Positions 1 to 16,710 of a stretch of DNA of 64,000 nt are shown here, in pieces. The stretch comes from an uncultured Erysipelotrichaceae bacterium (lineage in GTDB: Bacteria > Bacillota_I > Bacilli_A > RFN20 > CAG-826), in NCBI GenBank assembly GCA_900315885.1, contig ONAT01000002.1, positions 28,776 to 92,775 of the forward strand, written 5' to 3'. Within the stretch, counting starts at the first letter, position 1; each line of letters begins with the position of its first letter. Under the pieces are notes generated by a model. The model was not told the DNA's origin. It did not search any database and worked only from the letters and a program-made list of their open reading frames with translations. The translations under genes were made by a program, and so were the position numbers.

Positions 1-162
1 TTCAAATTATTTACTTTCAATTATATTTTAGCATAACTAAAAAACTTTTACAAAAGCCATTTGACACGCATGTATTTGTAAATGAAATAATAATTTAAAA
101 AATACTATTTATAGTAAAATAATACAAAAACGATACTTTTTAATGAATATTATCAATTTAAT

Positions 163-351
163 TTACTTCATATGTATCATCACTGAATCATTATCAACAA
201 ATAAGCCTAAAAATCGAAAAAACGAAGTGAAAACAGAATAATAATATTTACCAGGATTACGTAAAAATTCATTGAAAACTTTTTGATTTTGCTCATGATA
301 TTTTGTTTTACCTTTTTTTGGATGGTTTGCCAAAATCGAAATCACATACAT
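163..351 (-). CDS. Small hypothetical protein (62 aa), last ORF of the helicase operon.
   Basis: ORF track only; same strand and 42 nt downstream of the 113 aa ORF; no recognisable motifs. Confidence 0.2.
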   Translation of the reverse strand: MYVISILANHPKKGKTKYHEQNQKVFNEFLRNPGKYYYSVFTSFFRFLGLFVDNDSVMIHMK

Positions 352-392
352 CTTACCTATATCTTCTAAAAGTGAATTATCAATTTTTCTTC

Positions 393-734
393 CTAGTTTT
401 TAAAGTTACTCACATATTTGCTGTATTCTGCATCTCGTCTTCTCCCCAAATAAACATCAATAAATGAAGGTATATTAAACTCGTTGTTTTCATCCGAATA
501 GTTACAGACAATTTCAAATATTTCTCTTACAAGAGGAAGCAAGTTTTGCTTATAAGAATTAGTTTTTATATCTGCAGCATATATAGCAATTTCATTTTTA
601 GTATTAAAATGCTTTTCAGTACATTTTATCAACTCATCCAAAGAATTTAAACTATTTTTAAAAATTGACTCGAATGTAGGATATTTCTTTTTAAATATGA
701 AAACTTCAACCTCGTTCTTAATAATTTTTTTCAC
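393..734 (-). CDS. Hypothetical protein (113 aa), translationally coupled downstream of the UvrD-like helicase.
   Basis: Start lies 4 nt after the helicase stop; no recognisable family motifs. Confidence 0.35.
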   Translation of the reverse strand: MKKIIKNEVEVFIFKKKYPTFESIFKNSLNSLDELIKCTEKHFNTKNEIAIYAADIKTNSYKQNLLPLVREIFEIVCNYSDENNEFNIPSFIDVYLGRRRDAEYSKYVSNFKN

Positions 735-737
735 ATT

Positions 738-3284
738 CTAAGGGATAATATCATCTGAATATCCTAAAATCGACTTGTAAATAAGATCAAACTTTTCTTC
801 ATTATTTTTGTATTGAGAAACTGATTCTTCTATAACTTTTTTTGTCTCATGAAGTTTCTCATGTATATCTTTGTTTTTAAAGCGTTCCTCTAATTTTTTC
901 ACTTCCTTATTTAAATTTTCATTTAAGGATTCGTACTTAGATTGATATTTAGATAACTCGGATTTAGTTTTGTTCAATTCATCAATTAATATTTCTTTTT
1001 CTTTTTTAGATAAATCTGCTTGTTTTCTTTTTTCATCGTATTCGATTATTTTTGCTTCTAGTTCGGAAATTCTCTTTTTATATCTTTCGCAAATGGAATC
1101 CTTAGAATCAGCTTCATTTATAAGTTTTGAAATTAACTCCTTTTGGCTTTTATCTTTTTCTCTAAACTCATTATTTTCAAATTCTATTGCTTCAATTTTT
1201 TTATCTTTTTCCACAATTGATTCCCGTATTTTATCAGTTTCTTTGATTAATTGTAATTGTATAAAATTATCTCTTTCTAAAGATTCAATTATCTCATCTT
1301 TTGCCTTAATAATATTACACTTATCATCATTCAAATATGTAAAGGATACTTCTTCAAACGACTCGATTTTTGTAGAAAAATAAGTCTCTGGTATTGTATA
1401 AATAAAAGATTTATCAGCTAAGTCTTTTGTATTATCTACTGCATAGCCTGTAGCAGTCAAATAAAGCAATTCTCTTGCTCTTGTAACGCATACATAAAAA
1501 AGTCTACGTTCATTATCCAAATTTGCATCATCTAATTTTTCAATGTTACACGGAAATCCTCCCGCCTCTAAACCAACAATAAAAACAGCATCAAACTGTA
1601 GTCCTTTAGATTGATGAGCAGTCATCAATCTAACGCAATTTTTTGTTTCATTTTTTTGCTGCTCACATAAAGAAAAATTCATTGATGCCACAATTGAAAG
1701 ATACTCATCATCTTCTGAATTATCACTTTCAAACATTTCTTCACTTGATTTGCAAAAAGAAAAGGCATATTCGTATATATCATCCATTAACTCATAACGT
1801 GTTTTATTGTTTTTAAGATCATAAGCAATTAAATTTGCAATAATCATTGATGGCATTTTGCCATTATGTACTAAATCATATTGTTCTTTAGCAAATGCAT
1901 AACATCTTGTTAAGTTTCTAATCCTTTTTTGAAAAGCTTCAGAATTAGTAATGATTGGATTCAATTCTATAATTTGATCCATTGTTTTTTGAAAACTTCT
2001 TTCACATGAAAAATTAGTACCATATTCTATATTAATTAATTCCAAAATTCTAGAATAACTTCTTTTCACAAATGAGTTAGAATCAATAGCAATACAAAGA
2101 GATGGATTAATTTCTTCTTTATATAGGTTATTTAGTATATCACATATTCTTTTAATTGTTTTCGATGTATCATTGTCATTTCCAAGGAAAGTAGATGTAG
2201 TCGCATCAATTCCTTTTTTTTGCAATTTTTCTTTAATTTCTATTAATCTAAAATTATATCTAGATAAAACTGCAATTTCTCTTGGTTCAATATTAGACTG
2301 AGTTATTAAGCGAAAAATCTCATTAACAACATAATCGTTTTCATCATTTTTGCTTGAAAACGGAGCGCACCTTACTGGTTTTAGTGTACTTTTTGTTTTA
2401 TTAGCAATAATAGTTTTTTCTCTTCTTTCCTTGGAACGTAGTCCCATTAATACCTTTTTTGAAAATTCAACAATTGGTTTTTCTGATCTATAATTTCTTG
2501 TTAAATAATATACGTCATACCCAGAATCTTTAGTTGTTTTTTCAAGAATAAAATTAGGGTTTGATCCCCTAAATTCATATATAGATTGATCATCATCACC
2601 GACATACAAAACGTTAGTATCTTCTCGAATTAGTAAATCAAGTAGTTCGTTTTGTTTTTTATTAATGTCTTGATATTCATCAACAAAAATATAATCATAC
2701 AAATATGATATTTTTTCCCTAATAATTGAATTGTTTTTTAGAATTTTGACAGTCAAATATATGAAATCATCCAAATCAATTAAATTTGAATCAATCATTT
2801 TTGCGCAATATTCATTAAATTGCTCTATTGTAAAATTATACTTATTAATAACAAATCCATTCTTTATACTAGATACATACTCAAGAAATGAATTTATCAC
2901 TTCATTAGATTCATCTTCTTCAGTAATAATTGTTTCTATAATTCTTTTTTTGTCATTTATGTCTGCAATTGTATATCCATCTCTAAGTCCCACAAGATCT
3001 TTATATTTAAATAAAAGTCTGCAGCCAAAAGAGTGAAGTGTACATATATTTTTCTTTTCACTTCTACTAAATGAAATTTCTTTTGAAAGACGTTCCAACA
3101 TTTCTCCAGCAGCTTTTCTAGTAAATGTTACAGACAAAATCTTTTTTAGCTTAACTCCTTTACTATTTAGCTGTACTATTTTTTTTATTAATGTTGTTGT
3201 TTTTCCACTACCTGGGCACGCTAAAACAACTATTCTTTTACTTGTTGATTCTATAATTAATTCTTGTTGTGTTTTATTTGACAT
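738..3284 (-). CDS. UvrD/PcrA/Rep-like superfamily-1 DNA helicase with a roughly 250 aa C-terminal K/E-rich coiled-coil extension.
   Basis: Walker A VLACPGSGKTTTL. Motif II FVDEYQD. Motif III LYVGDDDQSIYEFRG. Motif IV LTRNYRS. Motifs V/VI AHQSKGLQFDAV and YVCVTRARELLYL. The last ~250 aa are heptad-like K/E/I/L repeats. Start overlaps the stop of the upstream 246 aa gene; RBS AAGGA. Confidence 0.85.
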   Translation of the reverse strand: MSNKTQQELIIESTSKRIVVLACPGSGKTTTLIKKIVQLNSKGVKLKKILSVTFTRKAAGEMLERLSKEISFSRSEKKNICTLHSFGCRLLFKYKDLVGLRDGYTIADINDKKRIIETIITEEDESNEVINSFLEYVSSIKNGFVINKYNFTIEQFNEYCAKMIDSNLIDLDDFIYLTVKILKNNSIIREKISYLYDYIFVDEYQDINKKQNELLDLLIREDTNVLYVGDDDQSIYEFRGSNPNFILEKTTKDSGYDVYYLTRNYRSEKPIVEFSKKVLMGLRSKERREKTIIANKTKSTLKPVRCAPFSSKNDENDYVVNEIFRLITQSNIEPREIAVLSRYNFRLIEIKEKLQKKGIDATTSTFLGNDNDTSKTIKRICDILNNLYKEEINPSLCIAIDSNSFVKRSYSRILELINIEYGTNFSCERSFQKTMDQIIELNPIITNSEAFQKRIRNLTRCYAFAKEQYDLVHNGKMPSMIIANLIAYDLKNNKTRYELMDDIYEYAFSFCKSSEEMFESDNSEDDEYLSIVASMNFSLCEQQKNETKNCVRLMTAHQSKGLQFDAVFIVGLEAGGFPCNIEKLDDANLDNERRLFYVCVTRARELLYLTATGYAVDNTKDLADKSFIYTIPETYFSTKIESFEEVSFTYLNDDKCNIIKAKDEIIESLERDNFIQLQLIKETDKIRESIVEKDKKIEAIEFENNEFREKDKSQKELISKLINEADSKDSICERYKKRISELEAKIIEYDEKRKQADLSKKEKEILIDELNKTKSELSKYQSKYESLNENLNKEVKKLEERFKNKDIHEKLHETKKVIEESVSQYKNNEEKFDLIYKSILGYSDDIIP

Positions 3285-3285
3285 T

Positions 3286-4026
3286 TTAAATCCTTGCCTT
3301 TATATTAACTCTAATTCCAGCTTTAATACCTTTTTCTTCATCACTTGGTAAAATATTGGAGACAGTAATTTGAAATTTGTATCCATCATCAATCATTTTT
3401 CCCATAGTAGGTGTTAGATATGCTGGAATATTAAATACATCATCGATATAATCTATAAAAACATTAATTTGATACTTATCATGAATGGAATTTTTAACGC
3501 GTTCGTATTTAAGATTAGTACCAATATCAATTAAATCAAAATCATTTTGAAACGCTTTTGAGGATGTATGTCTAAGTGGAACATTTTGTTTTCCAAGATA
3601 TGACAATAATTCGTTTTTGAAATATTCATTATATGGATAAAGATTTGATGTATCAAATACAATACCAGTTTTTTCATTTGCTGGTACAACCCTGTTAGAT
3701 GTGATTTTTATATTTGGATACTCACTTACACACTTTCCATTTATCTTTAAATAAAATTTATATTTATTATTCTCACTATTTAAAAACTTAACATCGTCTA
3801 AAGAATCAAAAAACAATAATAATGATGCGTTTTCAAGATTTTCTAAAGAAGCATCTGAAATTTTAAAAACGATATATTTATTACCATTTGATGCCTTGAT
3901 AATTTCTTTTGATTGATTCTTTACAAGATAAACAGAATCAACGTACTCGCCTTTTTTTAAATTTTTTAAATATTTATGCATAGACATTGCGCCTCCGTAT
4001 TTTAAAACAACGTACGATATATCCAA
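3286..4026 (-). CDS. Hypothetical protein (246 aa), first gene of the operon, partner of the UvrD-like helicase.
   Basis: Stop overlaps the helicase start; divergent from an XRE regulator. No confident family assignment; only a weak PD-(D/E)xK-like pattern (FDLIDIG...YERVK) that I cannot verify. Confidence 0.5.
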   Translation of the reverse strand: MDISYVVLKYGGAMSMHKYLKNLKKGEYVDSVYLVKNQSKEIIKASNGNKYIVFKISDASLENLENASLLLFFDSLDDVKFLNSENNKYKFYLKINGKCVSEYPNIKITSNRVVPANEKTGIVFDTSNLYPYNEYFKNELLSYLGKQNVPLRHTSSKAFQNDFDLIDIGTNLKYERVKNSIHDKYQINVFIDYIDDVFNIPAYLTPTMGKMIDDGYKFQITVSNILPSDEEKGIKAGIRVNIKARI

Positions 4027-4040
4027 TAATTAATTTTTTT

Positions 4041-4110
4041 CTCATAATTTATGAGTTTTGCATAATCAAAATACAATATTTTTTGAGTTTTTACAATAGT
4101 AATCTCATAA
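4041..4110. promoter_or_regulatory. Divergent promoter/operator region with CTCATAA half-site repeats: palindrome CTCATAAtTTATGAG at 4041-4055 and a further CTCATAA at 4104-4110.
   Basis: Inverted and direct repeats read directly in the 85 nt gap between the divergent XRE gene and the 246 aa operon start. Confidence 0.45.
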
Positions 4111-4138
4111 AATGCTATATTTAAGTGAGGAAAAACTT

Positions 4139-4408
4139 ATGTTTAAAGATAAATTACGTGAATTAAGAGAGGACAAGGGTATTACACAAGCCGAGATGGC
4201 AAAAATGCTTAATATGACAAGCACAGGATATGGTGCTTATGAGCGAGGAGATTGTGAGCCTAGTATATCTACGCTTATTAATATTTGTAAGATACTTTGT
4301 GTCAGCGCTGATCAACTCTTAGAACTTAGTAAACCTGATGTTTTTTCACAAAATGATGTCGAATATTTAGAGTCTTTAACAGTAAGAATTTCTCAACAGC
4401 TCAAATAA
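4139..4408 (+). CDS. XRE-family helix-turn-helix transcriptional regulator (Cro/CI-like).
   Basis: HTH_XRE signature LRELREDKGITQAEMAKMLNMTSTGYGAYERGDCEPSISTLINICKILCVSADQLLEL. Probable start at the internal ATG 4139 with RBS GTGAGGAAAA (the track ORF starts at 4112). Confidence 0.8.
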   Translation: MFKDKLRELREDKGITQAEMAKMLNMTSTGYGAYERGDCEPSISTLINICKILCVSADQLLELSKPDVFSQNDVEYLESLTVRISQQLK

Positions 4409-4422
4409 TTAAATCAATAACA

Positions 4423-4455
4423 AAATAGAGTCTAGCCAAATCGCTAGACTCTTTT
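4423..4455. terminator. Rho-independent terminator; the hairpin is symmetric so it can act in both directions.
   Basis: Perfect 10 bp stem AGAGTCTAGC-caaatc-GCTAGACTCT followed by TTTT. Confidence 0.6.
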
Positions 4456-4557: not shown

Positions 4558-4929
4558 TCAAAACATTACGCTAAACGAGGTGAATATGAATAAACAGCAG
4601 TAAGTGTGATTGATTCCATATAATGGAGTATCATATTGAATTTCGTAGATACTTGTGAAGTATTGGTCTTCATTAATTACATGCTCTATATCACTTCTTC
4701 TGATAATCATATCATATTCGTTATTTGGAGTAATTAAATCAATTTCCTTACCTTGTGATCCTGGTCGACTTTTTTTAGTTAACGAAATTCCCATAATTTT
4801 TGCTTCATCTACTTTTACTTCATCAATAGATGTTTTGTTTTCATCTTCATAATAAACTTCTAAATAATCTCCCATTACAACAGTGGAAATCACATTATTT
4901 GATTTCTTAGAATGCATAGTTAAATTCAT
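4558..4929 (-). pseudogene. Decayed copy of the tandem lipoprotein paralog: no signal peptide, divergent C-terminus.
   Basis: Its 123 aa align with the central region of the 212 and 208 aa lipoproteins (HSKKSNNVIS..GDYLEVYYEDE..IRRSDIEHVINEDQ.FTSIYE). The N-terminal lipobox region is missing, and the tail from residue ~100 (NHTYCCLFIFTSFSVMF) is unrelated to the paralogs' tail. Confidence 0.55.
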
Positions 4930-4941
4930 AGATAAACTTAA

Positions 4942-4975
4942 ACAAAAAAAAGCCCAGTGACCAAGTCACTAGACT
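4942..4975 (-). terminator. Rho-independent terminator downstream of the 212 aa lipoprotein gene; a near-identical copy sits at about 5995-6028.
   Basis: On the minus strand: stem CAGTGAC-ttg-GTCACTG, then GGGC and a T8 run. Duplicated together with the flanking intergenic sequence. Confidence 0.5.
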
Positions 4976-5113
4976 TTTCTAAGGTGTATTAAAGTTTTAC
5001 TATGTCTTGTTCTATCAATTGTATTTTGTTAAAAGACAAATAGCTTTTCAAAAAAGAGCCTACTTATATTCATACATTAAATATCTTTTATTTATTGACT
5101 CTCTTCGAATGAA

Positions 5114-5734
5114 TTATCCTAATCTTGGCGAATAAGAATAAAGTGCTATCATATTATAAATCTTGTATTCATATGATTTCACACTTCCCTCAATAGTATT
5201 AATTTCGATGTCTTCTTCGCGATATATTCCGTATAGTATAGTGTCATCTAAAATATCGTAAATACTTGTGAAGGATTGATCTTCATTAATTACAAACTCT
5301 ATATCATTTCTTCTGATAATCATATCAGATTCGTTATTTTGAGTAATTAAATCAACTTCTTCACCATGTGATCCTGGTGGACATTTTTTAGTTAACGAAA
5401 TTTCCATAACGCTTGCTTCATCTACTTTTGCTTCATTGATTAAAGTTTTATCTTCATCTTCATAGTAAACTTCCAAGTAATCACCTGCTACAACATTAGA
5501 AATTATATTATTGGATTTCTTAGAATGCAAAGTTAAATTCGCAGATGAACTTAAAACATTATTCACTGAATATGATACGCATCTTGTTTCCTCGTCGTAA
5601 TTGACATCTACGTACATTCTTTCCATGTTTTCAGTTTTACTTTGAGATTCACCGCCACCTGTTTTATCACAAGCAAAAAGGATTGGTAAGCATAATGCTA
5701 AACATAATAGACCAAGTGATTTTCGATTTTTCAT
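5114..5734 (-). CDS. Lipoprotein, member of the tandem paralog family.
   Basis: Signal peptide with lipobox LFAC-D. About 75 percent identity by eye to the 208 aa paralog. Probable start at the internal Met (MKNRKS) with RBS GGGGGA. Confidence 0.7.
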   Translation of the reverse strand: MKNRKSLGLLCLALCLPILFACDKTGGGESQSKTENMERMYVDVNYDEETRCVSYSVNNVLSSSANLTLHSKKSNNIISNVVAGDYLEVYYEDEDKTLINEAKVDEASVMEISLTKKCPPGSHGEEVDLITQNNESDMIIRRNDIEFVINEDQSFTSIYDILDDTILYGIYREEDIEINTIEGSVKSYEYKIYNMIALYSYSPRLG

Positions 5735-6168
5735 ATGTTTTCCCCCATACATAGTTTATTCTTCAATTCCTATTTAAATACATTTTTATTTAATTCAATG
5801 AAATTGAATACCTCCTAAGTTGTTTTCATTTTAACACATTTTATTGCATCTGGCAAATATTTTTTAGCAGGCTTAAAAAATGAAAGATATCTTAAGCTTA
5901 GTATAATTATTGATAAAAAATCGATAATCAATGCTTTTTAGTCACATTCCATTTTACATTATTAACACTCTGTCATTTTTTTAAAATACATTTAACAAAA
6001 AAAGCCCAGTGAGCAAGTCACTAGACTTTTTAAGGTGTATTAAAGTTTTACTATGTCTTATATATTCTATCAATTGTCTTTTGTGAAAAGACAAATAACT
6101 TTTCAAAAAAGAGTCTACTTATATTCGTACATTAAATGTCTTTTATTTATAGACTCCCTTTGGATGAA

Positions 6169-6795
6169 TTATCCTAATCTTGGCGAGTAAGAGTAAAGTG
6201 CTATCATATTATAAATCGTGTATTCATATGATTTCACACTTCCCTCAATAGTATTAATTTTGATGTCTTCTTCGCGATATATTCCGTATAGTTTAGTATC
6301 ATCTAAAATATCGTAAATACTTGTAAAAGATCCATCTTCGTTAATCACGTATTCTACGTCACGTGCCTGTATTAATTTGTTGTCATCATTATCTTCTGAA
6401 AGATAATTAATTTCCATCCCTTGAGATCCTGGTGGGGATTTTTTAATTAACGACATTTCCATAATACTAGCTTCATCTACTTTGATTTCATCAATTACTG
6501 TTTTATCTTCGTCTTCATAGTAAACTTCCAAGTAATCTCCCGCCACAACGTTAGAAATTACATTGTTTGTTTTTTTAGAATACAAAGTTAAATTAGTGGA
6601 TGAACTTAAAACATTATTCACTGAATAAGTTACTTTGTCTGTTTCAGTATCATAACATGCGTCAACATACAATCTAGTCATCTTATCACTAAGATTGTCA
6701 TTTTTGTTTTCGCTTGCGTTAGAATTTGAAACACCACAACTAAACATACCAATAGAACATGCCATTAAGCAAAAAAGACGTAAAACTTTTTTCAT
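6169..6795 (-). CDS. Lipoprotein, member of the tandem paralog family; co-transcribed with the upstream secreted peptidase.
   Basis: Signal peptide MKKVLRLFCLMACSIGMFSCG (lipobox). C-terminal ~170 aa nearly identical to the 212 aa paralog. Start is 3 nt after the peptidase stop. Confidence 0.7.
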   Translation of the reverse strand: MKKVLRLFCLMACSIGMFSCGVSNSNASENKNDNLSDKMTRLYVDACYDTETDKVTYSVNNVLSSSTNLTLYSKKTNNVISNVVAGDYLEVYYEDEDKTVIDEIKVDEASIMEMSLIKKSPPGSQGMEINYLSEDNDDNKLIQARDVEYVINEDGSFTSIYDILDDTKLYGIYREEDIKINTIEGSVKSYEYTIYNMIALYSYSPRLG

Positions 6796-6797
6796 TA

Positions 6798-8603
6798 TTA
6801 TTCACCTCCTAAATAAATATCCATATCTCCAATACAAATTCTTCCCTTGTTTCTGCTACCTATCGCATCAGATTCAACACTAAATCTAAATTCAGTAACT
6901 CCTTCAGGGAATACAATTATGTAATGACCTGGGTTAGTACGATCAGTAGTAAGTGTTATATCATTTAACAAATCTAATGATGTTGCCCATAATCCATTAC
7001 TATTTCTATATTCAAGCTTAGCTTTAGCGTTAGACTTATTTATTGATTCGCTACTGCTCCACATTGTTAAATCAACATCGATACGATATACATTGGTGTC
7101 AAATGAATATATCAAATATGCACGACCAGCATTTGATCTTCTTGGTGATAATACTATATATTCTGATTCAATGTATCCACATCTTAATCTTGTTGTTCCA
7201 ATAGTATAATTACCTTGAACAATGTCTAACTCTTTAATTCCTTCGTTTTCAAAATAGTATCTTTCTTCAAAACCGTATTCCGCTGGTGCTAATACAATAC
7301 GATCTATTGAAGAAGTTGGTTCATTATAAACATATGTAACAGAATTGTAATATGATACATTAGAACTTGCAATTCGCTTAAATTGTACATATATTTTGCC
7401 ACTAGCTTTATTCAAAATAGTTTTCCAAGCATTTAATGATAATGTAATTTGATTTCTTGATGTTGTATATGAATACAATGCACTTCCATTTCTTGATGTT
7501 TTTATAGAAAGCGTATATGTCTCTTCTGAATCATATATATCTTTCATCCAATATAATGTTGGTGGAACGTTTTTCCAATTGGCTGGTACACTGAATAATA
7601 TTTCATCAGATATATTACATCCACAATGTCCCTTTCCATTAATAATGTAATTATTAGAATGTGTGTGGCCCATTGCTGAGTAATCTAAAGTAAATGCTTC
7701 TGTAATTTTGGAATAATTATGCGGACTTCCTAATAATGGTGAGTGTGTACTACCACTACTCCAGCCAAAGTTTGCATAGATACCAGCCTCATCATAATCA
7801 TATGCTACGACGGAATGGTAGGCGATTTGGTTACCAGCTGAGTCGTAACTCTTAATGTGAACAATAATAGGATTTCCACTATTTATTGTATCCTTAACCA
7901 AATTAATATATTCTGACTGTGTCTTGTTTCGATAACTATTAACGACAACAGAGGCATTATAATTTGAATAGAATGAGTTCAAAACTCTTTGATAATCCCA
8001 TCCTCCGATAGAGTATGAAAATTTGTCAGAACTGTCTGTAATGTCTAGAGTATTCTTTACAATAGTTAATTTGCTTTGTAAGTCATTGCTCTCGGTTGCA
8101 TGACAATATTCGTAGTAATTTGAATACCCGCTTCCATAATAGTATTGTCTTTTTACACCAGGCGAATGTTCTTTTACTTCAGTTTCAGTTGTTGCCGATG
8201 TATATTTTGCTTCAAAAACTTCTGGAATAACGTTGTCATTATAGAAAGTATCATAATAACTCATTGCTTGTATCAATGAAACATATCCACATGAACCAAC
8301 GCTATTATAAGCGGAATAGTCATTTAAATTTTCAAAATAACTTCTCCTTGTAAATGCGGTTTGTCTAGAATAAACTTTTTCAGCAAAATCCGTGTAATCA
8401 GCTGTTCCATCTGGAGTGCTTTCTGGTGCAGAGAAATCATCATAATTTGAAAAATCAGAATCATCCGACTTGTATTTCTTTGCTATTTTTTCTAGTTCAC
8501 TAGCATAATCATCATCTCTATGATAATTTTTTAACTCCGTTTTGCTAGTGTTAGCAGCTAAAGTTGTAGCTGCTAATATTAAAAATAATGTTACTTTTTT
8601 CAT
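6798..8603 (-). CDS. Secreted protein with an N-terminal papain-like (C39-like) cysteine peptidase domain and a C-terminal beta-rich region.
   Basis: Signal peptide MKKVTLFLILAATTLAAN. Cys motif NSVGSCGYVSLIQAMSYYD resembles the C39/C39_2 catalytic cysteine context; downstream His in AYHSVVAYDYDE. RBS AAGGGGG. Confidence 0.4.
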   Translation of the reverse strand: MKKVTLFLILAATTLAANTSKTELKNYHRDDDYASELEKIAKKYKSDDSDFSNYDDFSAPESTPDGTADYTDFAEKVYSRQTAFTRRSYFENLNDYSAYNSVGSCGYVSLIQAMSYYDTFYNDNVIPEVFEAKYTSATTETEVKEHSPGVKRQYYYGSGYSNYYEYCHATESNDLQSKLTIVKNTLDITDSSDKFSYSIGGWDYQRVLNSFYSNYNASVVVNSYRNKTQSEYINLVKDTINSGNPIIVHIKSYDSAGNQIAYHSVVAYDYDEAGIYANFGWSSGSTHSPLLGSPHNYSKITEAFTLDYSAMGHTHSNNYIINGKGHCGCNISDEILFSVPANWKNVPPTLYWMKDIYDSEETYTLSIKTSRNGSALYSYTTSRNQITLSLNAWKTILNKASGKIYVQFKRIASSNVSYYNSVTYVYNEPTSSIDRIVLAPAEYGFEERYYFENEGIKELDIVQGNYTIGTTRLRCGYIESEYIVLSPRRSNAGRAYLIYSFDTNVYRIDVDLTMWSSSESINKSNAKAKLEYRNSNGLWATSLDLLNDITLTTDRTNPGHYIIVFPEGVTEFRFSVESDAIGSRNKGRICIGDMDIYLGGE

Positions 8604-9052
8604 ATTGTCCCCCTTTTATTATTTTTAATTGATAAAACCCAAATGTTCATATTTATTAAACATACGAACACAAAACTTAAATTTTTTTTCTGTCACTTAT
8701 CTCCTCCCTCAAAATGTGAGTGATTCATTCAACAAAAAATGAAATAGAAAAAATGGCTAGCCTCGCAAAGGCCTAAATCCGTGCCTAAATTATAAAATGT
8801 TACTAAATTCAAAATTATAGTTCTTAATTAGAATTAATTGATATGCAATTCTCCTTGTGTCATTTTCCATTTTAATCCCCTCACACATTAATTATTTCAA
8901 CAACAACAGCAACCTTATTGACTTACTAAGCACATAGTAACCCAATAAAGCGCATAGGATGCTAACTGCTCATCACTACAAAATTAAGTTAACATATAAT
9001 AATTCCTTTTGCAACACAAAAACTTAAATATGGTATATTTTTTAAGCCACAT

Positions 9053-9084
9053 TAAAAAATGCTAAATGGCAATCACTTAGCATT
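9053..9084 (-). terminator. Rho-independent terminator.
   Basis: Minus-strand hairpin ATGCTAAgtgattgccatTTAGCAT followed by TTTTTT. Confidence 0.55.
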
Positions 9085-9094
9085 AAATAAATCA

Positions 9095-9286
9095 TTATTT
9101 AGAAATAATACGATAAATAATAAGCGCTGAATAGGAATATATTTGCTCATTAGTATTTGATAAAAAATGTGATGTAGCGTATTTAATATCAATAAAACTC
9201 TCATCAGGAAGCGATTTAAAAAAAGCATTAATCTGTTCTTCTAAATCTTCTTCATTTTCTTCATCAATTACGGCGACTGCAATCAC
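9095..9286 (-). CDS. Small acidic hypothetical protein (63 aa).
   Basis: ORF track only; lies between the flavoprotein gene and a terminator. Confidence 0.25.
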   Translation of the reverse strand: MIAVAVIDEENEEDLEEQINAFFKSLPDESFIDIKYATSHFLSNTNEQIYSYSALIIYRIISK

Positions 9287-9352
9287 GATTAATCACCCTT
9301 ATTAATAGTAACCAATGAATAATACAAATAAACTCTAATAATGTCGAATTAC

Positions 9353-10543
9353 TTATTTCACGATGTAACTTGTAGCAAACGCAATTTGGAGAGAGTAACC
9401 ACCGACAAAGGCATCAACATCAAGTACTTCTCCAACAAAATATAAGTCTTTTACTATTTTGCTTTCCATATTTTTAGGATTAATATCTTTAACATCTACA
9501 CCACCAGAAGTAACAATTGCTTCCTCCAGTGGTGCAAATTTTAAGAAATGCAATGGAAAATGTTTTAAATATCTTATCATTTCTTTGCGCATTTCTTTCG
9601 TAATAGCGTTACATAATAAATCTTTATTTATTTTTAAAATAGACAAAATAGTGTCAGATATTATAAAAGGAACAAATGCTGTTAAAGTACGAGAAATCTC
9701 ACGATTAGGATTTGCAGAAAACTTCTGCACTAATAAGTGATCTAGTTCTTCTTCTGATACATTATTTTTAAAATCAAGTTCCAATTCTTTTACTTCTTCA
9801 CGATTAATTAAACTCGACATGTTGCGGACAACATTTCCGCTTATGCGATTATCTTTAAAAATTACTGTACCAGTTAATTTTCTTTTAGCATTATTAGTCA
9901 TACTAATAAGCGTTGCACCCTCAAAAGTGAAACCATCTAATTTTTTTAAAAAATCATCTTTCAAATATATATCACATAAAGCTGAACGAATTGGAACAAT
10001 TGTATGACCAAATTCAGTTGCAATCTTATAACCTATGCCATTAGAGCCTGTTTGAGGATAAGATTTGCCTCCTGTTGCGACTACAAGTTTATCGCATTCT
10101 AATTCGTTATGTTCTAAAGATACAACAAAGCGTTCCTCATTAAAGCATTTTATAACTTTTGCGTTATATAAGAACTTAACACCTAGTTCTTCACATTTAT
10201 TTAATAAAGCATCGAGAATATCTTTAGCTTTATTACTTTTTGGATAGACTCTTTCTTCAACAACATAAGAATCAACACCTAAATCTTGAAAGAATTCAAC
10301 GCATTTTTGACTAGAAAAAGTATATAAAGCAGTCTTTAAGAATGCATTGTTGCGCACAACACATTTTAAAAATTCATCAACACTTGTTAAGTGTGTAAAA
10401 TTACATTTTCCGTGTCCTGTTAAAAGCAGTTTATGACCTGCAGATTTATTTTGTTCTAAAACGAGAACTTCATAGCCTTGCGAAGCAAAACTAATCGCCG
10501 ACATTAATCCACTTGGTCCTGCACCAATGACAATAACTTTCAT
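9353..10543 (-). CDS. HI0933-like FAD-dependent flavoprotein (BaiN / aminoacetone oxidase family).
   Basis: N-terminal dinucleotide fold KVIVIGAGPSGLMSAISFASQGYEVLVLEQN and GHKLLLTGHGKCNFT; C-terminal GEVLDVDAFVGGYSLQIAF, typical of this family. Confidence 0.75.
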   Translation of the reverse strand: MKVIVIGAGPSGLMSAISFASQGYEVLVLEQNKSAGHKLLLTGHGKCNFTHLTSVDEFLKCVVRNNAFLKTALYTFSSQKCVEFFQDLGVDSYVVEERVYPKSNKAKDILDALLNKCEELGVKFLYNAKVIKCFNEERFVVSLEHNELECDKLVVATGGKSYPQTGSNGIGYKIATEFGHTIVPIRSALCDIYLKDDFLKKLDGFTFEGATLISMTNNAKRKLTGTVIFKDNRISGNVVRNMSSLINREEVKELELDFKNNVSEEELDHLLVQKFSANPNREISRTLTAFVPFIISDTILSILKINKDLLCNAITKEMRKEMIRYLKHFPLHFLKFAPLEEAIVTSGGVDVKDINPKNMESKIVKDLYFVGEVLDVDAFVGGYSLQIAFATSYIVK

Positions 10544-12941
10544 TAGTTTGCCACCACACTTACAATACGATTTTTAATAACCATAATCTTTCTAATTGTC
10601 AAATTAGCTAAGTGTTTTTGTACATTAGGCGACGCTAAAGCCTTCTCTTTAATTTCTTCTTCGCTTGCATCAACAGAAACAGTAATAGTATCACGTAGTT
10701 TTCCGTTAACTTGTACTGCTAAAGTCATTTCTTTTTTCACTAATTTATTTTCATCAAATGTTGGCCATTTTTCATATGCAATAGTGTTATCATGGCCTAA
10801 TTTTTGCCACATTTCTTCACCAATATGCGGAGCAATACAAGAAATCATTTTTACAAATCCTTCCGCATATTCACGTGGTAATTTATTAATACGATAAACT
10901 TCATTAATAAAAATCATCATTTGGGATATGGCAGTATTAAATGATAAGTTTTCATAATCGCTTGTTACTTTTTTAACTGTTTGATGGTAGAGCATTTCTA
11001 ATTCTTTTACTTCTTCATCAACAATAACATTTGCATCAACAATAATACGATATACTCTATCTAAGAATTTATGCGCCCCTTCAACACCATTATTACTCCA
11101 TGGTTTACTTGCCTCTAAAGGTCCCATAAACATTTCATATAAACGCAATGTATCCGCGCCATATTGCTTAACAATATCACTAGGATTAATAACAAATTCT
11201 GGGAATCTCTTACCCATTTTAATACCATTTGTGCCTAAAATCATACCTTGGTGTACAAGTTTTTTAAATGGTTCATCAAAAGAGATATAACCTTTTTGAT
11301 GGAGATATTTTGTCCAAATGCGCGAATAAATTAAATGTCCTACTGCGTGTTCTGGTCCACCAATATATAAGTCAACTGGGAGCCAGTGATCAAGTAATTT
11401 CTTATCACCAAATACTTTATCGTTATTTGGATCAACATATCGCATAAAATACCAGCTTGAACCTGCAGAACCTGGCATTGTTGATGTTTCTCTAACACCT
11501 TTTTTGCCGTTATATGTATATTTCTTCCATTCGGTTGCGTTTTCTAAAGGTGCTTTACCATTTTTGCCTTTGTAATCATCTAGTTCTGGTAACACTAATG
11601 GCAATTCTTCATCGCTTAAAACGTGGATTGTGCCATCTTCCATATGTACAACTGGTACTGGCTCACCCCAATAACGTTGACGAGCAAAAATCCATTCACG
11701 GAACTTGTAATTAACTTTTTTCTTACCTACGCCAAGTTCACCTAATTTTTCTAGCATTACTTTAATAGCGTCCTCTTTATTTAATCCGTTTAAGAAGGAA
11801 GAATTAATATGTAATCCATCTTCGGTGTAAGCTTCTTTTGTTATATCTCCGCCTTCTAAGACTGGAATAATGTCAAGATTAAATTTTTTAGCAAAAGCAT
11901 AGTCTCTTTCATCGTGAGCAGGAACCGCCATAATCGCACCTGTTCCATAAGTTGATAAAACATAATCAGAAATAAAGATTGGCATCTCTTTACCATTTAT
12001 TGGATTAATAGCATAACTTCCAAGGAAGCATCCCGTTTTTTCTTTATTTAAAGAAGTTCTCTCTAATTCAGATTTACGACTTGATGCTAAAACATATTTT
12101 TCAACTTCTTCTTTTTGTTCTTTACTTGTAATCTTTTTGACTAATTCATGTTCTGGAGATAAAACGCAATATGTCGCTCCAAAAAGAGTGTCGCAACGTG
12201 TGGTAAAGACTGTAAATTTCTCATCTGTTCCTTTGACTTTAAAATCAATTAAAGCACCTTCGCTACGGCCAATCCAGTTTCTTTGCATTTCTTTTGTGGA
12301 TTCTGGCCAATCAATGCGATTAAGTCCTTCAAGTAATTGATCTCCAAAGCTCGCTTGGTCAATTACCCATTGTTTCAAGTTTTTACGGACAACTGGATAA
12401 CCACCACGTTCAGATTTACCATCGATTACTTCATCATTTGATAAAACTGTGCCTAATTCTTCGCACCAATTGACTGGCATATCAATATATTTTGCATAGC
12501 CATCAAGGTAAAGATTTTTAAATATCCATTGTGTCCATTTGTAGAATTTTGGGTCACTAGTAACAATCATTTTGCTCCAATCATAATCAAAGCCCAATTC
12601 TTTTAGTTGTTTAGTGAATGTTGCAATGTTTTGCATTGTAAATTCTTCAGGGTGATGATTTGTTTTAATAGCGTATTGTTCAGCAGGTAAACCAAAGGAG
12701 TCATATCCCATTGGATGTAAGACATTATATCCTTGCATTCTTTTCATACGCGAAACTATATCAGTCGCAGTATATCCTTCTGGATGTCCAGCATGTAAGC
12801 CCACTCCTGATGGATATGGGAACATATCCAAAGCATAAAATTTTGGTTTAGAAAAATCATAAACATCAGTTTTGAATGTTTGATTATCTTCCCAATACTT
12901 TTGCCATTTCTTTTCAATTTCACTAAAATTGTAACCCATAA
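10543..12941 (-). CDS. leuS: Leucyl-tRNA synthetase.
   Basis: Class I aaRS HIGH motif [16 protein letters not shown] and KMSKS-like GIKMGKR; LeuS-like domain order and length. Start assigned to the internal Met [13 protein letters not shown], which has RBS GGAGG; the track ORF extends upstream into the leader. Confidence 0.92.
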
Positions 12942-14977: not shown

Positions 14978-16710
14978 TATTTGTTACCTCCTAAAGTGTC
15001 TTGAGAATCACATATCTCTTTATAAACCTGACATATTTTAACTAACTCTTCATGTTTACCTAAGCCCACAATCTTGCCTTCATCTAAAACAATAATTTCA
15101 TCAGCATTTTTAATAGCGTTAACACGTTGTGAGATAATTAATAATGTCGTTTCTTTATAATTATTTTTAATAGCAGTACGTAAATCTAAGTCTGTTTTAA
15201 AGTCAAGCGCGGATGTTGAGTCATCTAGCACTAAAATCTTTGGCTTTTTAATTAGAGCTCGAGCAATAGATAACCTTTGTCTTTGTCCACCCGAGAAATT
15301 CTTTCCTAATTCTTCGACAACACTGTCAAGACCATTTTCTTTGCTTTCGACAACGTTACGTGCTTGAGCATTATCAAGAGCAAACCACATATCTTCATCG
15401 CTTGCATTTCTATTACCAAATAACAAATTAGAACGTATTGTTCCTTTAAAGATTGCAACTTTTTGGTCAACGACTGCAATGCTACTTCTTAATTCATCTA
15501 ACGATATATCTTTAATGTTTACATCATTATAATATATCGCACCTTTAGTAACATCATAGAAGCGATTTAATAAATTAATGATTGTGGTTTTACCACTTCC
15601 TGTACCACCAATGATACCGATAGTATTCCCTCGTTTAATATCAAAACTTGCGTCTTTTATTGCGTAAGAATCATTATCTGAATAAGAATAAGATACATTA
15701 TCAAATTTAATGATATCTTCTTTATCAGTTGTTTTTTCTTTACCACTTACAATTGTTGGTTCAAGCACTAGGACATCATTTATTCTTTTTGCGGATACCG
15801 AGGCTTTAGAGAATGTGACAACTAAATCACCAACAACCACAACTGCTAAAGATATTTGAACTAAATAATTAATTAATGAAGATACTTCTCCTTTTGATAA
15901 GCCAAAAGCCCATGAAGAAGAATTACCACTAAAATAAAAAATTAAAATAATTGCTACATTTACGATAACAGTCGTCAAAGGATTAAGTAAAGCAGAAAGC
16001 ACGGACAAGGAAGTTGATGTTTTTTGAACATCATTAACTTCTTTATAAAATCTATTTCTTTCATATTCTTGTTTATTAAAAGCTCTAACAACACGTGTAC
16101 CAGTTAAATTTTCTTTTGTAATATTAGTAATGTTATCAATTTCAGTTTGGATTTTACGGTTGTATGGTAAAGAGAATTTAGAACTTAAAAATAAGACTAA
16201 ACCAATAAGTAGACCAACACCAACGAAAATGATACCAAGTTTAGGCGATACAAAGAAAGACATAACAGTGCCACCTATAACAATTAAAGGTGCCCGCACT
16301 ACTAAACGAATTAACATTGCCACTGCTCTTTGTGTTGTTGAAACATCGGTGGTTAATCTAGTTTGCAAAGAACTAACACCGATATCATCAATTTCTTTAA
16401 AAGAAAGAGTGTTAACTTTCGCATACAAATCTATACTGACATTGTAGGCGTATTTTGAAGATATACGGCAAGCGATGTATTGGCAAACCATTGTAGTAAA
16501 AAAGCCTATAACCGCAAGAGAGAGTAAAATAAGTCCTTGCTTAACAATATAATCCGATGTTAAGTTTTCACCACTATCAATATAATCAATAATATTCGCC
16601 ACGATTAATGGCACAATTAATTCAAAAATAGCTTCCAATACTTTAAAGCAAGGGCCAGCTATAACGCCTGCCTTATATGGGGCTAAATATTTTTTAAATA
16701 ATTTAAGCAT
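14977..16710 (-). CDS. ABC transporter, fused permease/ATP-binding subunit; heterodimer partner of the downstream gene.
   Basis: Walker A GGTGSGKTTIINL, signature FSGGQRQRLSIARAL, Walker B ILVLDDSTSALD. Stop overlaps the partner's start. Confidence 0.85.
   Translation of the reverse strand: MLKLFKKYLAPYKAGVIAGPCFKVLEAIFELIVPLIVANIIDYIDSGENLTSDYIVKQGLILLSLAVIGFFTTMVCQYIACRISSKYAYNVSIDLYAKVNTLSFKEIDDIGVSSLQTRLTTDVSTTQRAVAMLIRLVVRAPLIVIGGTVMSFFVSPKLGIIFVGVGLLIGLVLFLSSKFSLPYNRKIQTEIDNITNITKENLTGTRVVRAFNKQEYERNRFYKEVNDVQKTSTSLSVLSALLNPLTTVIVNVAIILIFYFSGNSSSWAFGLSKGEVSSLINYLVQISLAVVVVGDLVVTFSKASVSAKRINDVLVLEPTIVSGKEKTTDKEDIIKFDNVSYSYSDNDSYAIKDASFDIKRGNTIGIIGGTGSGKTTIINLLNRFYDVTKGAIYYNDVNIKDISLDELRSSIAVVDQKVAIFKGTIRSNLLFGNRNASDEDMWFALDNAQARNVVESKENGLDSVVEELGKNFSGGQRQRLSIARALIKKPKILVLDDSTSALDFKTDLDLRTAIKNNYKETTLLIISQRVNAIKNADEIIVLDEGKIVGLGKHEELVKICQVYKEICDSQDTLGGNK

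Follow-up and report, generated by a model that had tools for sequence, protein, structure and literature searches.

A decaying two-gene cassette pairing a predicted OB-HIRAN protein with a long UvrD-like helicase: a candidate defence module of gut Bacilli

Several defence systems built around a helicase have been described, among them Gabija, Hachiman and Druantia, and the way in which they distinguish phage DNA from that of the host continues to be investigated. Here we analyzed a locus at positions 163-4408 of a 64,000-nucleotide stretch of DNA (64 kb; referred to here as the window) from an uncultured Erysipelotrichaceae bacterium (assembly GCA_900315885.1, contig ONAT01000002.1, positions 28,776 to 92,775). 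Within this locus, a UvrD-like helicase of superfamily 1 (SF1), gene B, is preceded by a smaller gene, gene A, whose product we predict to consist of an OB fold and a HIRAN domain. Among described systems, PDC-M03 combines a HipA-like kinase with a HIRAN-domain protein (PMC13245101) and corresponds to the HipS-HIRAN antitoxins described previously (PMC8262856), and prokaryotic HIRAN domains have explicitly been called uncharacterized (PMC11090510). We found no description of an OB-HIRAN protein paired with a UvrD-like helicase in PADLOC v2.0.0 or in the literature searched, which is incomplete. Our data suggest that a rare cassette of two genes, acquired horizontally, is present in decaying form at window positions 163-3981. 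Its most likely role is in defence against phages or mobile elements, a reading to which we assign a probability of about 50%.

The list of open reading frames (ORFs) for this locus contains minus-strand ORFs of 246 aa (3286-4026, TTG start), 848 aa (738-3284), 113 aa (393-734) and 62 aa (163-351), and a plus-strand ORF of 98 aa (4112-4408). A first-pass annotation of the window had taken the minus-strand ORFs to be a four-gene operon. We found that the 113-aa ORF continues the frame of the 848-aa ORF, from which only a TAG at 738-740 divides it, while the 62-aa ORF lies in another frame beyond a run of five A residues. Clustering at 90% identity groups the 848-aa protein with one of 1040 aa (P0020), whose contig, L013, matches the window at 99.1% identity throughout the locus. 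L013 carries GAG (Glu) in place of the TAG at codon 849 of gene B, such that P0020 reads '...DDIIPENVKK...' across this site, and it carries six A residues where the window has five on the coding strand (five T residues on the plus strand, 397-401). When P0020 was aligned to the window by tblastn, aa 1-962 matched in one frame at 99.3% identity and aa 963-1040 matched in another frame at 100%. Furthermore, the helicases adjoining gene A homologues are 1049-1078 aa long with the standard code, and their last approximately 200 aa align with the 113-aa and 62-aa ORFs, with which they share the motifs KKKYP, SYSD..EF.I..FID.YL, CNH and YY..F.SFF.F.GLF.D.D..M. The 113-aa and 62-aa ORFs are therefore fragments of the helicase C-terminus and not genes. 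By its sequence, window 163-3981 is a two-gene minus-strand operon in which gene B has lost its C-terminal domain. The remains of this domain (aa 826-1040 of the intact protein) occupy 163-809 on the minus strand, split over the end of the 848-aa ORF, the 113-aa ORF and the 62-aa ORF, with the ancestral TAA stop at 163-165.

The loss of the C-terminal domain of gene B to a nonsense mutation and a frameshift probably leaves the window copy of the cassette crippled or inactive. The truncated allele was found on five contigs from NCBI, ENA and Logan and is therefore no one-off assembly error; some of these contigs may be re-assemblies of related samples. Readthrough or recoding of the TAG was considered and rejected: the intact allele has GAG, translation table 11 serves without difficulty for the other genes of the window, and the other lesion is a frameshift. 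Phase variation at the A-run was also considered and set aside, as the run is short and slippage could not reverse a nonsense mutation.

The starts of the genes on either side of the intergenic region were also revised. Gene A most likely begins at the ATG at 3979-3981, giving a protein of 231 aa (3286-3981, minus strand) in place of the TTG start at 4026, since a GGAGG ribosome-binding site (3992-3996) precedes this ATG by 10 nt and every homologue starts with 'MH.FLK'. The plus-strand gene most likely begins at 4139 (89 aa, as in public assemblies; the alternative ATG at 4112 gives 98 aa). With both revisions the intergenic region is approximately 157 nt and not 85 nt as first described. The stop/start overlap reported between gene A and gene B also turned out to be a 1-nt gap (TAA-a-ATG). 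At homologous loci the two genes overlap by up to 8 nt or stand at most 1 nt apart, and tight coupling is conserved. A promoter scan returned 38 sites versus 34.5 expected in shuffled sequence, no better than chance, and an Rfam scan of the whole window returned no family at gathering score.

Gene A had been described as a 246-aa protein of no recognizable family. At default thresholds a Pfam scan indeed assigned no family to gene A, the 113-aa ORF or the 62-aa ORF, while structure prediction and family-level comparison gave the 231-aa protein a recognizable architecture: an OB fold at aa ~10-100 (~3682-3954), a conserved FDTSNLY linker and a divergent HIRAN domain at aa ~128-231 (~3289-3600). 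An AlphaFold2 model built from a 16-sequence alignment (predicted local distance difference test, pLDDT, 88.9; predicted template-modeling score, pTM, 0.79) has two beta-rich domains. A Foldseek search of the PDB with this model matched the tandem OB folds of RPA70, the OB domain of PolC, RPA32, hSSB1, HIN domains and telomere end-binding proteins, and returned no nuclease fold. Sequence searches of the PDB found nothing with the whole gene A profile and only three chance-level matches (E ~1) with a profile of the HIRAN half.

The HIRAN assignment comes from several family members. In 13 of the 16, the C-terminal half matched Pfam HIRAN (PF08797), all below the gathering score of 24.7 bits; the best of these sub-threshold E-values was 8.3e-5, and members scanned individually scored 16.7-21.6 bits over profile positions 9-84 of 96. 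The distant relatives P0034 and P0035, recovered by profile searching, exceed the gathering score (34.9 and 29.3 bits, respectively) and align over their full length to the gene A family with an hhalign probability of 95-96%, in an alignment that pairs the HIRAN signature NEYDPFAV of P0035 with NSPHDKYQINV of the family. Moreover, the PADLOC model PDC-M03B, a HIRAN protein, was matched by 15 of the 16 members, with E-values down to 3.5e-5, at profile positions ~151-219. Within the NS(P/I)HD motif, Asp168 of gene A is invariant in the family alignment, and we take it to be the counterpart of the Asp that contacts the 3'-OH in HLTF. Gene A thus appears to encode an OB-HIRAN DNA-binding protein, an assignment made for the window sequence at the level of its family, and by analogy the two folds suggest binding of single-stranded DNA (ssDNA) or of 3' DNA ends.

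Gene B is, as first proposed, a UvrD-like SF1 helicase. Its 848-aa ORF matched the Pfam domains UvrD-helicase (PF00580, 1.9e-58), UvrD_C (PF13361, 2e-34), AAA_19 and UvrD_C_2, and the seven motifs checked (I, Ia, II, III, IV, V and VI) are all intact, with GSGKT at residue 25, TFT at 53, DEYQD at 202, GDDDQSIY at 229, NYRS at 264, TAHQSKG at 555 and VCVTRA at 598. The helicase core, UvrD/PcrA-like and of class SF1A by Pfam, NCBIfam and the motif check, comprises aa 1-640 (1365-3284, minus strand). In agreement with the earlier statement that the helicase is not in a housekeeping pcrA context, gene B scored far below the NCBIfam cut-offs for PcrA (257.5 versus 911.2 bits), Rep (252.4 versus 951.5 bits) and UvrD (213.7 versus 1144.5 bits). 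In PADLOC the GajB models matched best (1.6e-79, 266 bits, over the 600-aa core), and the best 25 of 48 matching families were GajB models and one DRT reverse transcriptase-helicase model. Since the PcrA and Rep models score as high, we read the GajB match as generic UvrD similarity.

The core is followed by a charged, poorly conserved segment at aa ~641-825 (~185 aa; 810-1364, minus strand) in which E, K, R, D and Q make up 40-60% of the residues. Across the family, identity is 57-64% in the core, 20-30% in the charged segment and 27-36% in the last approximately 215 aa. The only PADLOC matches of the charged segment were spurious ones to SMC, JetC and LmuB coiled-coil regions, and for this reason we consider that the segment is probably a coiled coil.

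The C-terminal domain can be aligned in all full-length homologues as a conserved, all-alpha domain of 190-215 aa. Our alignment comprised 10 sequences, with seven of the homologous helicases obtained through a cluster look-up, and the AlphaFold2 model of the domain has 12 helices (pLDDT 88.7, pTM 0.88). Invariant polar residues include N72, K90, E113 and H166 (domain numbering). Neither Pfam nor PADLOC contains a family that matches the domain, and the PADLOC matches to the C-terminal half of the protein were confined to low-complexity coiled coil. Foldseek searches of the PDB and BFVD returned nothing significant (best PDB match Csm6 at E=0.27; a HEPN toxin at E=2.1), and the alignments contain no conserved HEPN Rx4-6H motif and no HD motif. 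We therefore rejected a HEPN label for this domain, given the insignificant Foldseek matches and the lack of a visible Rx4-6H motif. Of the nuclease, HEPN or PD-(D/E)xK folds for which the first-pass annotation proposed to look, structure prediction and Foldseek found no nuclease in gene A, which gave OB folds, and no significant match for the C-terminus of gene B. When the C-terminal domain was used as a query, either as a single sequence or as a 5-sequence profile, the matches listed consisted only of the window's own 113-aa fragment.

One observation concerns how the full-length helicases are called. Four public calls of 1084 aa (P0046, P0051, P0054 and P0056, in two clusters; L010, 4611-7865) differ from the 1067-aa call P0045 in that a TGA is read as Trp, adding a 17-aa extension (...HVKNLWFVKT...). 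With translation table 11 the protein ends at 1067 aa, as in close relatives, and the contig of the 1084-aa helicase was presumably called with genetic code 4.

The family is small. A word-indexed search of 5.8 billion proteins returned 16 clusters related to gene A at 50-59% identity, none with a Pfam domain or a name, and an exhaustive profile search of 1.84 billion representatives returned 10 proteins at E<=0.001. The cassette was present in one of 185,579 species-representative genomes, a single metagenome-assembled genome (MAG) labeled 'uncultured Bacilli bacterium'; another named relative comes from a 'Candidatus Enterosoma sp.' MAG. No relative was found in IMG/VR or in JGI metagenomes with profiles of gene A and of the C-terminal domain, nor in phage and plasmid collections with the gene A protein as query. 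We found the gene A-gene B pair in eight contexts in gut Bacilli assemblies (L003, L006/L018, L009/L010, L012, L014, L016, L019 and the window) and in the more distant L021. Since P0035 likewise has a UvrD-like helicase directly behind it, with a gap of 1 nt, the pairing reaches beyond the close family.

The contexts of the pair are diverse. In L003/L004 it is accompanied by a Lamassu LmuB_C gene, a 771-aa GajA/PtuA-like ATPase, an ApaLI (RE_ApaLI) fragment and a HEPN_Apea gene; the GajA/PtuA-like ATPase of L003 is unrelated, separately oriented and 2.5 kb from the pair. In L006/L007/L018, two serine recombinases, a group II intron and a SymE/MazE-like gene lie upstream, a pVip-like gene lies downstream and an N6/N4 methylase lies further on. 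An integrase, a Bro-N/ANT gene and a DpnII restriction-modification (R-M) system precede the pair in L009/L010/L011, where an SprT-like gene overlaps the helicase stop. The pair of L012 stands between a MutH-like/Dcm pair and Cas13d (4.7e-119) with Cas1, that of L014/L015 has a serine recombinase nearby and an SprT-like gene downstream, and that of L016/L017/L022 lies 3.3 kb from a HipBA-type module, a separate unit with its own HTH, Couple_hipA and HipA_C domains. The L019/L020 pair is surrounded by ordinary chromosomal genes. Overall, recognized defence or toxin-antitoxin (TA) genes lie within approximately 5 kb of the pair in five of eight contexts (Lamassu, DpnII R-M, Cas13d, pVip-like and HipBA), and recombinases or an integrase lie nearby in three of eight (L006, L009 and L014).

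Several downstream genes deserve description in their own right. The pVip-like radical-SAM gene (344 aa, 4.6e-20 in PADLOC; L006 11953-12987, L007 4111-5145 and L018 4435-5469) starts 9-11 nt after the helicase stop and is followed by four small or unknown genes; it could belong to a viperin-like system of its own or, in this clade, serve the cassette as an additional effector. The SprT-like metalloprotease of approximately 182 aa (L009 11903-12454, L014 9032-9580 and L015 8652-9200; also L010 7940-8362) overlaps the helicase stop by 4 nt in L009, L014 and L015, is followed by a conserved gene of 73-75 aa and may be a third component in this subclade. In L012, Cas13d and Cas1 (8755-11076 and 12069-12877) lie approximately 0.7 kb downstream of the cassette and the MutH-like nuclease and Dcm methylase lie upstream, which together form a compact defence island of an uncultured gut bacterium.

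Comparison of conspecific strains indicates that the cassette is accessory. A conspecific contig of 381 kb (L023) is 98.1% identical to the window contig over 10 kb, a stretch that spans leuS, an FAD enzyme, a peptidase, lipoprotein paralogues and the divergent XRE-family gene. This identity ends at window position ~4028, inside the intergenic region between the XRE gene and gene A, which marks the right edge of an islet; L023 lacks gene A, the helicase and two further genes of 288 and 108 aa. The XRE control region is present twice on contig L001, with a first copy at 9857-9954 and a second copy of approximately 100 bp (~81% identical) at 15639-15738, left of the window and before a leucine-rich repeat (LRR) gene. 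The 5.8-kb islet (gene A, helicase, 288-aa and 108-aa genes) is thus bracketed by direct repeats of the XRE control region, an arrangement that points either to its insertion at this site or, in L023, to its loss through recombination between the two copies. No Pfam or PADLOC family and no homologue at the other cassette loci was found for the 288-aa and 108-aa genes. Genes adjoining the cassette in the window cluster with those of an 'Erysipelotrichaceae bacterium' MAG. The G+C content over window positions 1-4000 is 24-28% versus approximately 30% for the whole window.

We favor a defence function because the cassette is accessory, islet-borne, slightly low in G+C and, elsewhere, found among defence genes and recombinases. 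The earlier suggestion of a candidate defence module fits the family, given homologous pairs that adjoin Lamassu, R-M, Cas13d, pVip-like and HipBA genes, and is less apt for the copy in the window, which is probably crippled. Several points weigh against the defence reading. Neither protein contains a nuclease, NADase, membrane or other recognized toxic effector domain. A defence role is, for every family member, a prediction from genes and neighborhoods, and the association with defence islands is a plain count over approximately eight independent contexts. Two contexts, the window and L019/L020, have no defence neighbors. The defence catalogue that was screened, PADLOC v2.0.0, dates from 2023 and precedes later systems. 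Window gene A has no match to Pfam HIRAN at E<=10, and the window locus itself, with its broken helicase, may do nothing.

The lack of a recognized effector is the main weakness of the defence reading, and it keeps alive two other roles. The cassette might be an accessory DNA-repair or replication-restart module, carried as cargo of mobile elements, in which the HIRAN and OB domains target the UvrD-like helicase to stalled forks or gaps, in the manner of HLTF and Rad5 in eukaryotes, and which plays no part in immunity. HIRAN domains are best known from fork-remodeling enzymes (PMC8262856), no toxic effector domain stands in the way of such a role and two contexts are plainly chromosomal. However, the family is extremely rare and patchy, is missing in a conspecific strain and has become a pseudogene in the window, and it repeatedly has R-M, CRISPR, Lamassu, pVip and TA neighbors, a pattern unusual for core repair functions. 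We consider a repair role unlikely, though it is the strongest of the alternatives.

Less probable again, in our view, is that the pair helps an integrative element to replicate or transfer, the element drawing for its own rolling-circle replication on a PcrA-like helicase and on a partner that resembles SSB or confers processivity. ICEBs1, for example, uses PcrA together with HelP. The serine recombinases, integrase, Bro-N/ANT gene and group II intron near the pair in L006, L009 and L014 are consistent with such a role, as is a partner whose modeled OB fold is a predicted ssDNA binder. However, no relaxase, Rep initiator or conjugation genes adjoin the pair at any locus, and the pair stands without a recombinase in the window, L003, L012, L016 and L019. 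The searches of IMG/VR and of phage and plasmid collections also yielded no match, and PcrA has neither a long coiled coil nor an extra domain of this kind.

We also considered whether the divergent regulator belongs to the cassette, as the first-pass annotation had supposed when it described a repressor facing an operon. The plus-strand gene (4139-4408) encodes, as reported, an XRE-family helix-turn-helix (HTH) regulator (Pfam HTH_3, 3.6e-12) and is followed by a bidirectional terminator-like hairpin at 4427-4452. The XRE-proximal control region (4028-4138) holds operator-like elements, namely a perfect 15-bp palindrome (CTCATAA-T-TTATGAG, 4041-4055), TTTTGAG at 4081-4087 and CTCATAA at 4104-4110. 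The CTCATAA repeats noted earlier are therefore real: the heptamer occurs eight times in the window versus 14 times expected by chance, and since three of these are crowded into 70 bp (4041-4110), the cluster is a credible candidate operator for XRE. In L013 the palindrome has one mismatch.

The divergent geometry and the palindrome with half-sites between the XRE gene and the operon would fit a four-gene toxin or abortive-infection operon with XRE as its dedicated repressor. We regard this as very unlikely. The region bearing CTCATAA lies on the conserved XRE side of the islet edge, and in L023, where it reads CTCATAAAATGTGAG, the XRE gene is kept at 98% DNA identity and its control region faces a different gene, an unrelated 76-aa gene that is followed by an 880-aa LRR surface protein. 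The control region recurs in a second copy beside the islet, and two of the four supposed genes are fragments of a pseudogene. Furthermore, the XRE gene was found only in the species of the window (L001, L013 and L023), and at the remaining homologous loci no XRE gene stands divergent to the pair. Since the XRE gene and its control region persist in the cassette-free L023 and other cassette loci lack a divergent XRE, the gene is, by this distribution, a chromosomal resident that does not belong to the module. It may incidentally control transcription of the cassette in the window strain. Finally, that gene B is a divergent Gabija or housekeeping PcrA helicase, for which its best PADLOC (GajB, 1.6e-79) and NCBIfam (PcrA) matches might speak, can be dismissed, with no adjacent GajA, a PcrA score far below the cut-off and a gene that is absent from a conspecific strain and truncated in the window.

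The surroundings of the islet are themselves variable. The LRR/Flg_new surface protein near the islet differs strongly between conspecific strains (L001 15836-18922, 1028 aa, versus L023 17056-19698, 880 aa; 40-63% identity in repeated blocks), which makes this flank of the XRE gene a hot spot of variation in general. On the other side, window 4558-6795 contains three tandem paralogous genes for putative lipoproteins of 123, 212 and 208 aa (4558-4929, 5114-5752 and 6169-6795), with blocks that repeat at 84-85% DNA identity; the 123-aa copy lacks the N-terminal signal part and looks truncated. A 601-aa protein beside them (6798-8603) has a weak match, below the cut-off, to a Mycoplasma-type cysteine peptidase (NF045837, 1.6e-9). 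GC skew is negative nearly throughout the 64-kb window, consistent with mostly minus-strand genes.

Within the defence reading we propose a more specific mechanism, which we put forward tentatively and hold to be plausible but on balance doubtful: the OB-HIRAN protein and the long UvrD-like helicase would form an undescribed anti-phage system in which sensing of 3' ends directs an SF1 motor to dismantle forks, with the C-terminal domain as effector or switch. The OB-HIRAN protein would recognize 3' ends or junctions of single- and double-stranded DNA, which are abundant in replicating or recombining phage DNA, and would load or activate the helicase on those structures. The motor would then unwind or remodel replication intermediates of the invader, as a bacterial SF1 counterpart of the HIRAN-guided fork regression carried out by HLTF. 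The coiled coil and the C-terminal domain could supply oligomerization, regulation or effector activity, the C-terminal domain acting as the effector itself or as a docking or regulatory module. In some relatives, the coupled downstream genes (SprT-like protease and pVip-like radical-SAM enzyme) might add an effector.

If this mechanism is true, prokaryotic immunity would make use of HLTF-type end recognition coupled to a motor, and the premature stop in the window would be a natural loss-of-function allele showing that the C-terminal domain matters. A cassette with a reader of DNA ends or ssDNA as its only non-motor component would be a clean model for the sensing of DNA structure, and it would give the largely uncharacterized HIRAN domains of prokaryotes a function. 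The C-terminal domain, with its confidently predicted fold and no relative in the PDB or BFVD, may be a new effector or regulatory module. There is also a lesson for annotation: three ORFs are one broken gene, and the adjacent XRE gene belongs to the host locus.

The comparison with known systems places the cassette apart from each of them. With PcrA, UvrD and Rep it shares an SF1A core in which all motifs checked are present; it differs in scores far below the equivalog cut-offs, in the extra coiled coil and C-terminal domain and in its accessory, patchy distribution. Unlike a housekeeping PcrA, the cassette is absent from L023, truncated in the window and intact in L013; a tblastn search found no separate PcrA within the 64-kb window. 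The earlier statement that the locus matches neither Gabija, Nhi nor Hachiman holds as well. PADLOC v2 gave only generic GajB-type matches for the helicase, no GajA and only a HIRAN match for the partner, and there was no system-specific match to Nhi, Hachiman, Hna, Druantia, Zorya or DISARM among the best 25 of 48 families for the helicase or for the partner, which matched only PDC-M03B.

Gabija resembles the cassette in being a two-gene system with a UvrD-like SF1 helicase, in the core that scores best against GajB models (266 bits) and in similar genomic neighborhoods. In contrast, the partner in the cassette is a 231-aa protein of predicted OB-HIRAN architecture and not GajA, an ATPase-TOPRIM nuclease of the OLD family: no PADLOC match to GajA was found in the partner or the other operon ORFs, and no GajA adjoins the pair in the window or at homologous loci. 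The cassette helicase is also approximately 400 aa longer than the GajB models, with a probable coiled coil and a unique all-alpha domain, and no nuclease was identified. PDC-M03, which pairs a HipI/HipN-type kinase with a HipS-HIRAN protein, likewise places a HIRAN domain in a small protein. However, the cassette is without a HipA-like kinase, a UvrD-like helicase adjoins the HIRAN protein at every locus and the N-terminal half of gene A is predicted to be an OB fold and not a HipS-like domain. HLTF and Rad5 differ from the cassette in their SF2 SNF2 motor, which contrasts with an SF1 UvrD-like one, and in that the HIRAN domain of the cassette lies on a separate polypeptide, where it is fused to an OB fold; moreover, no RING domain was found in the cassette, which is borne by a bacterial accessory islet. 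Even so, they couple an ATP-driven DNA motor to a HIRAN domain that binds 3' DNA ends, and they offer the closest functional analogy for a sensor that positions a motor.

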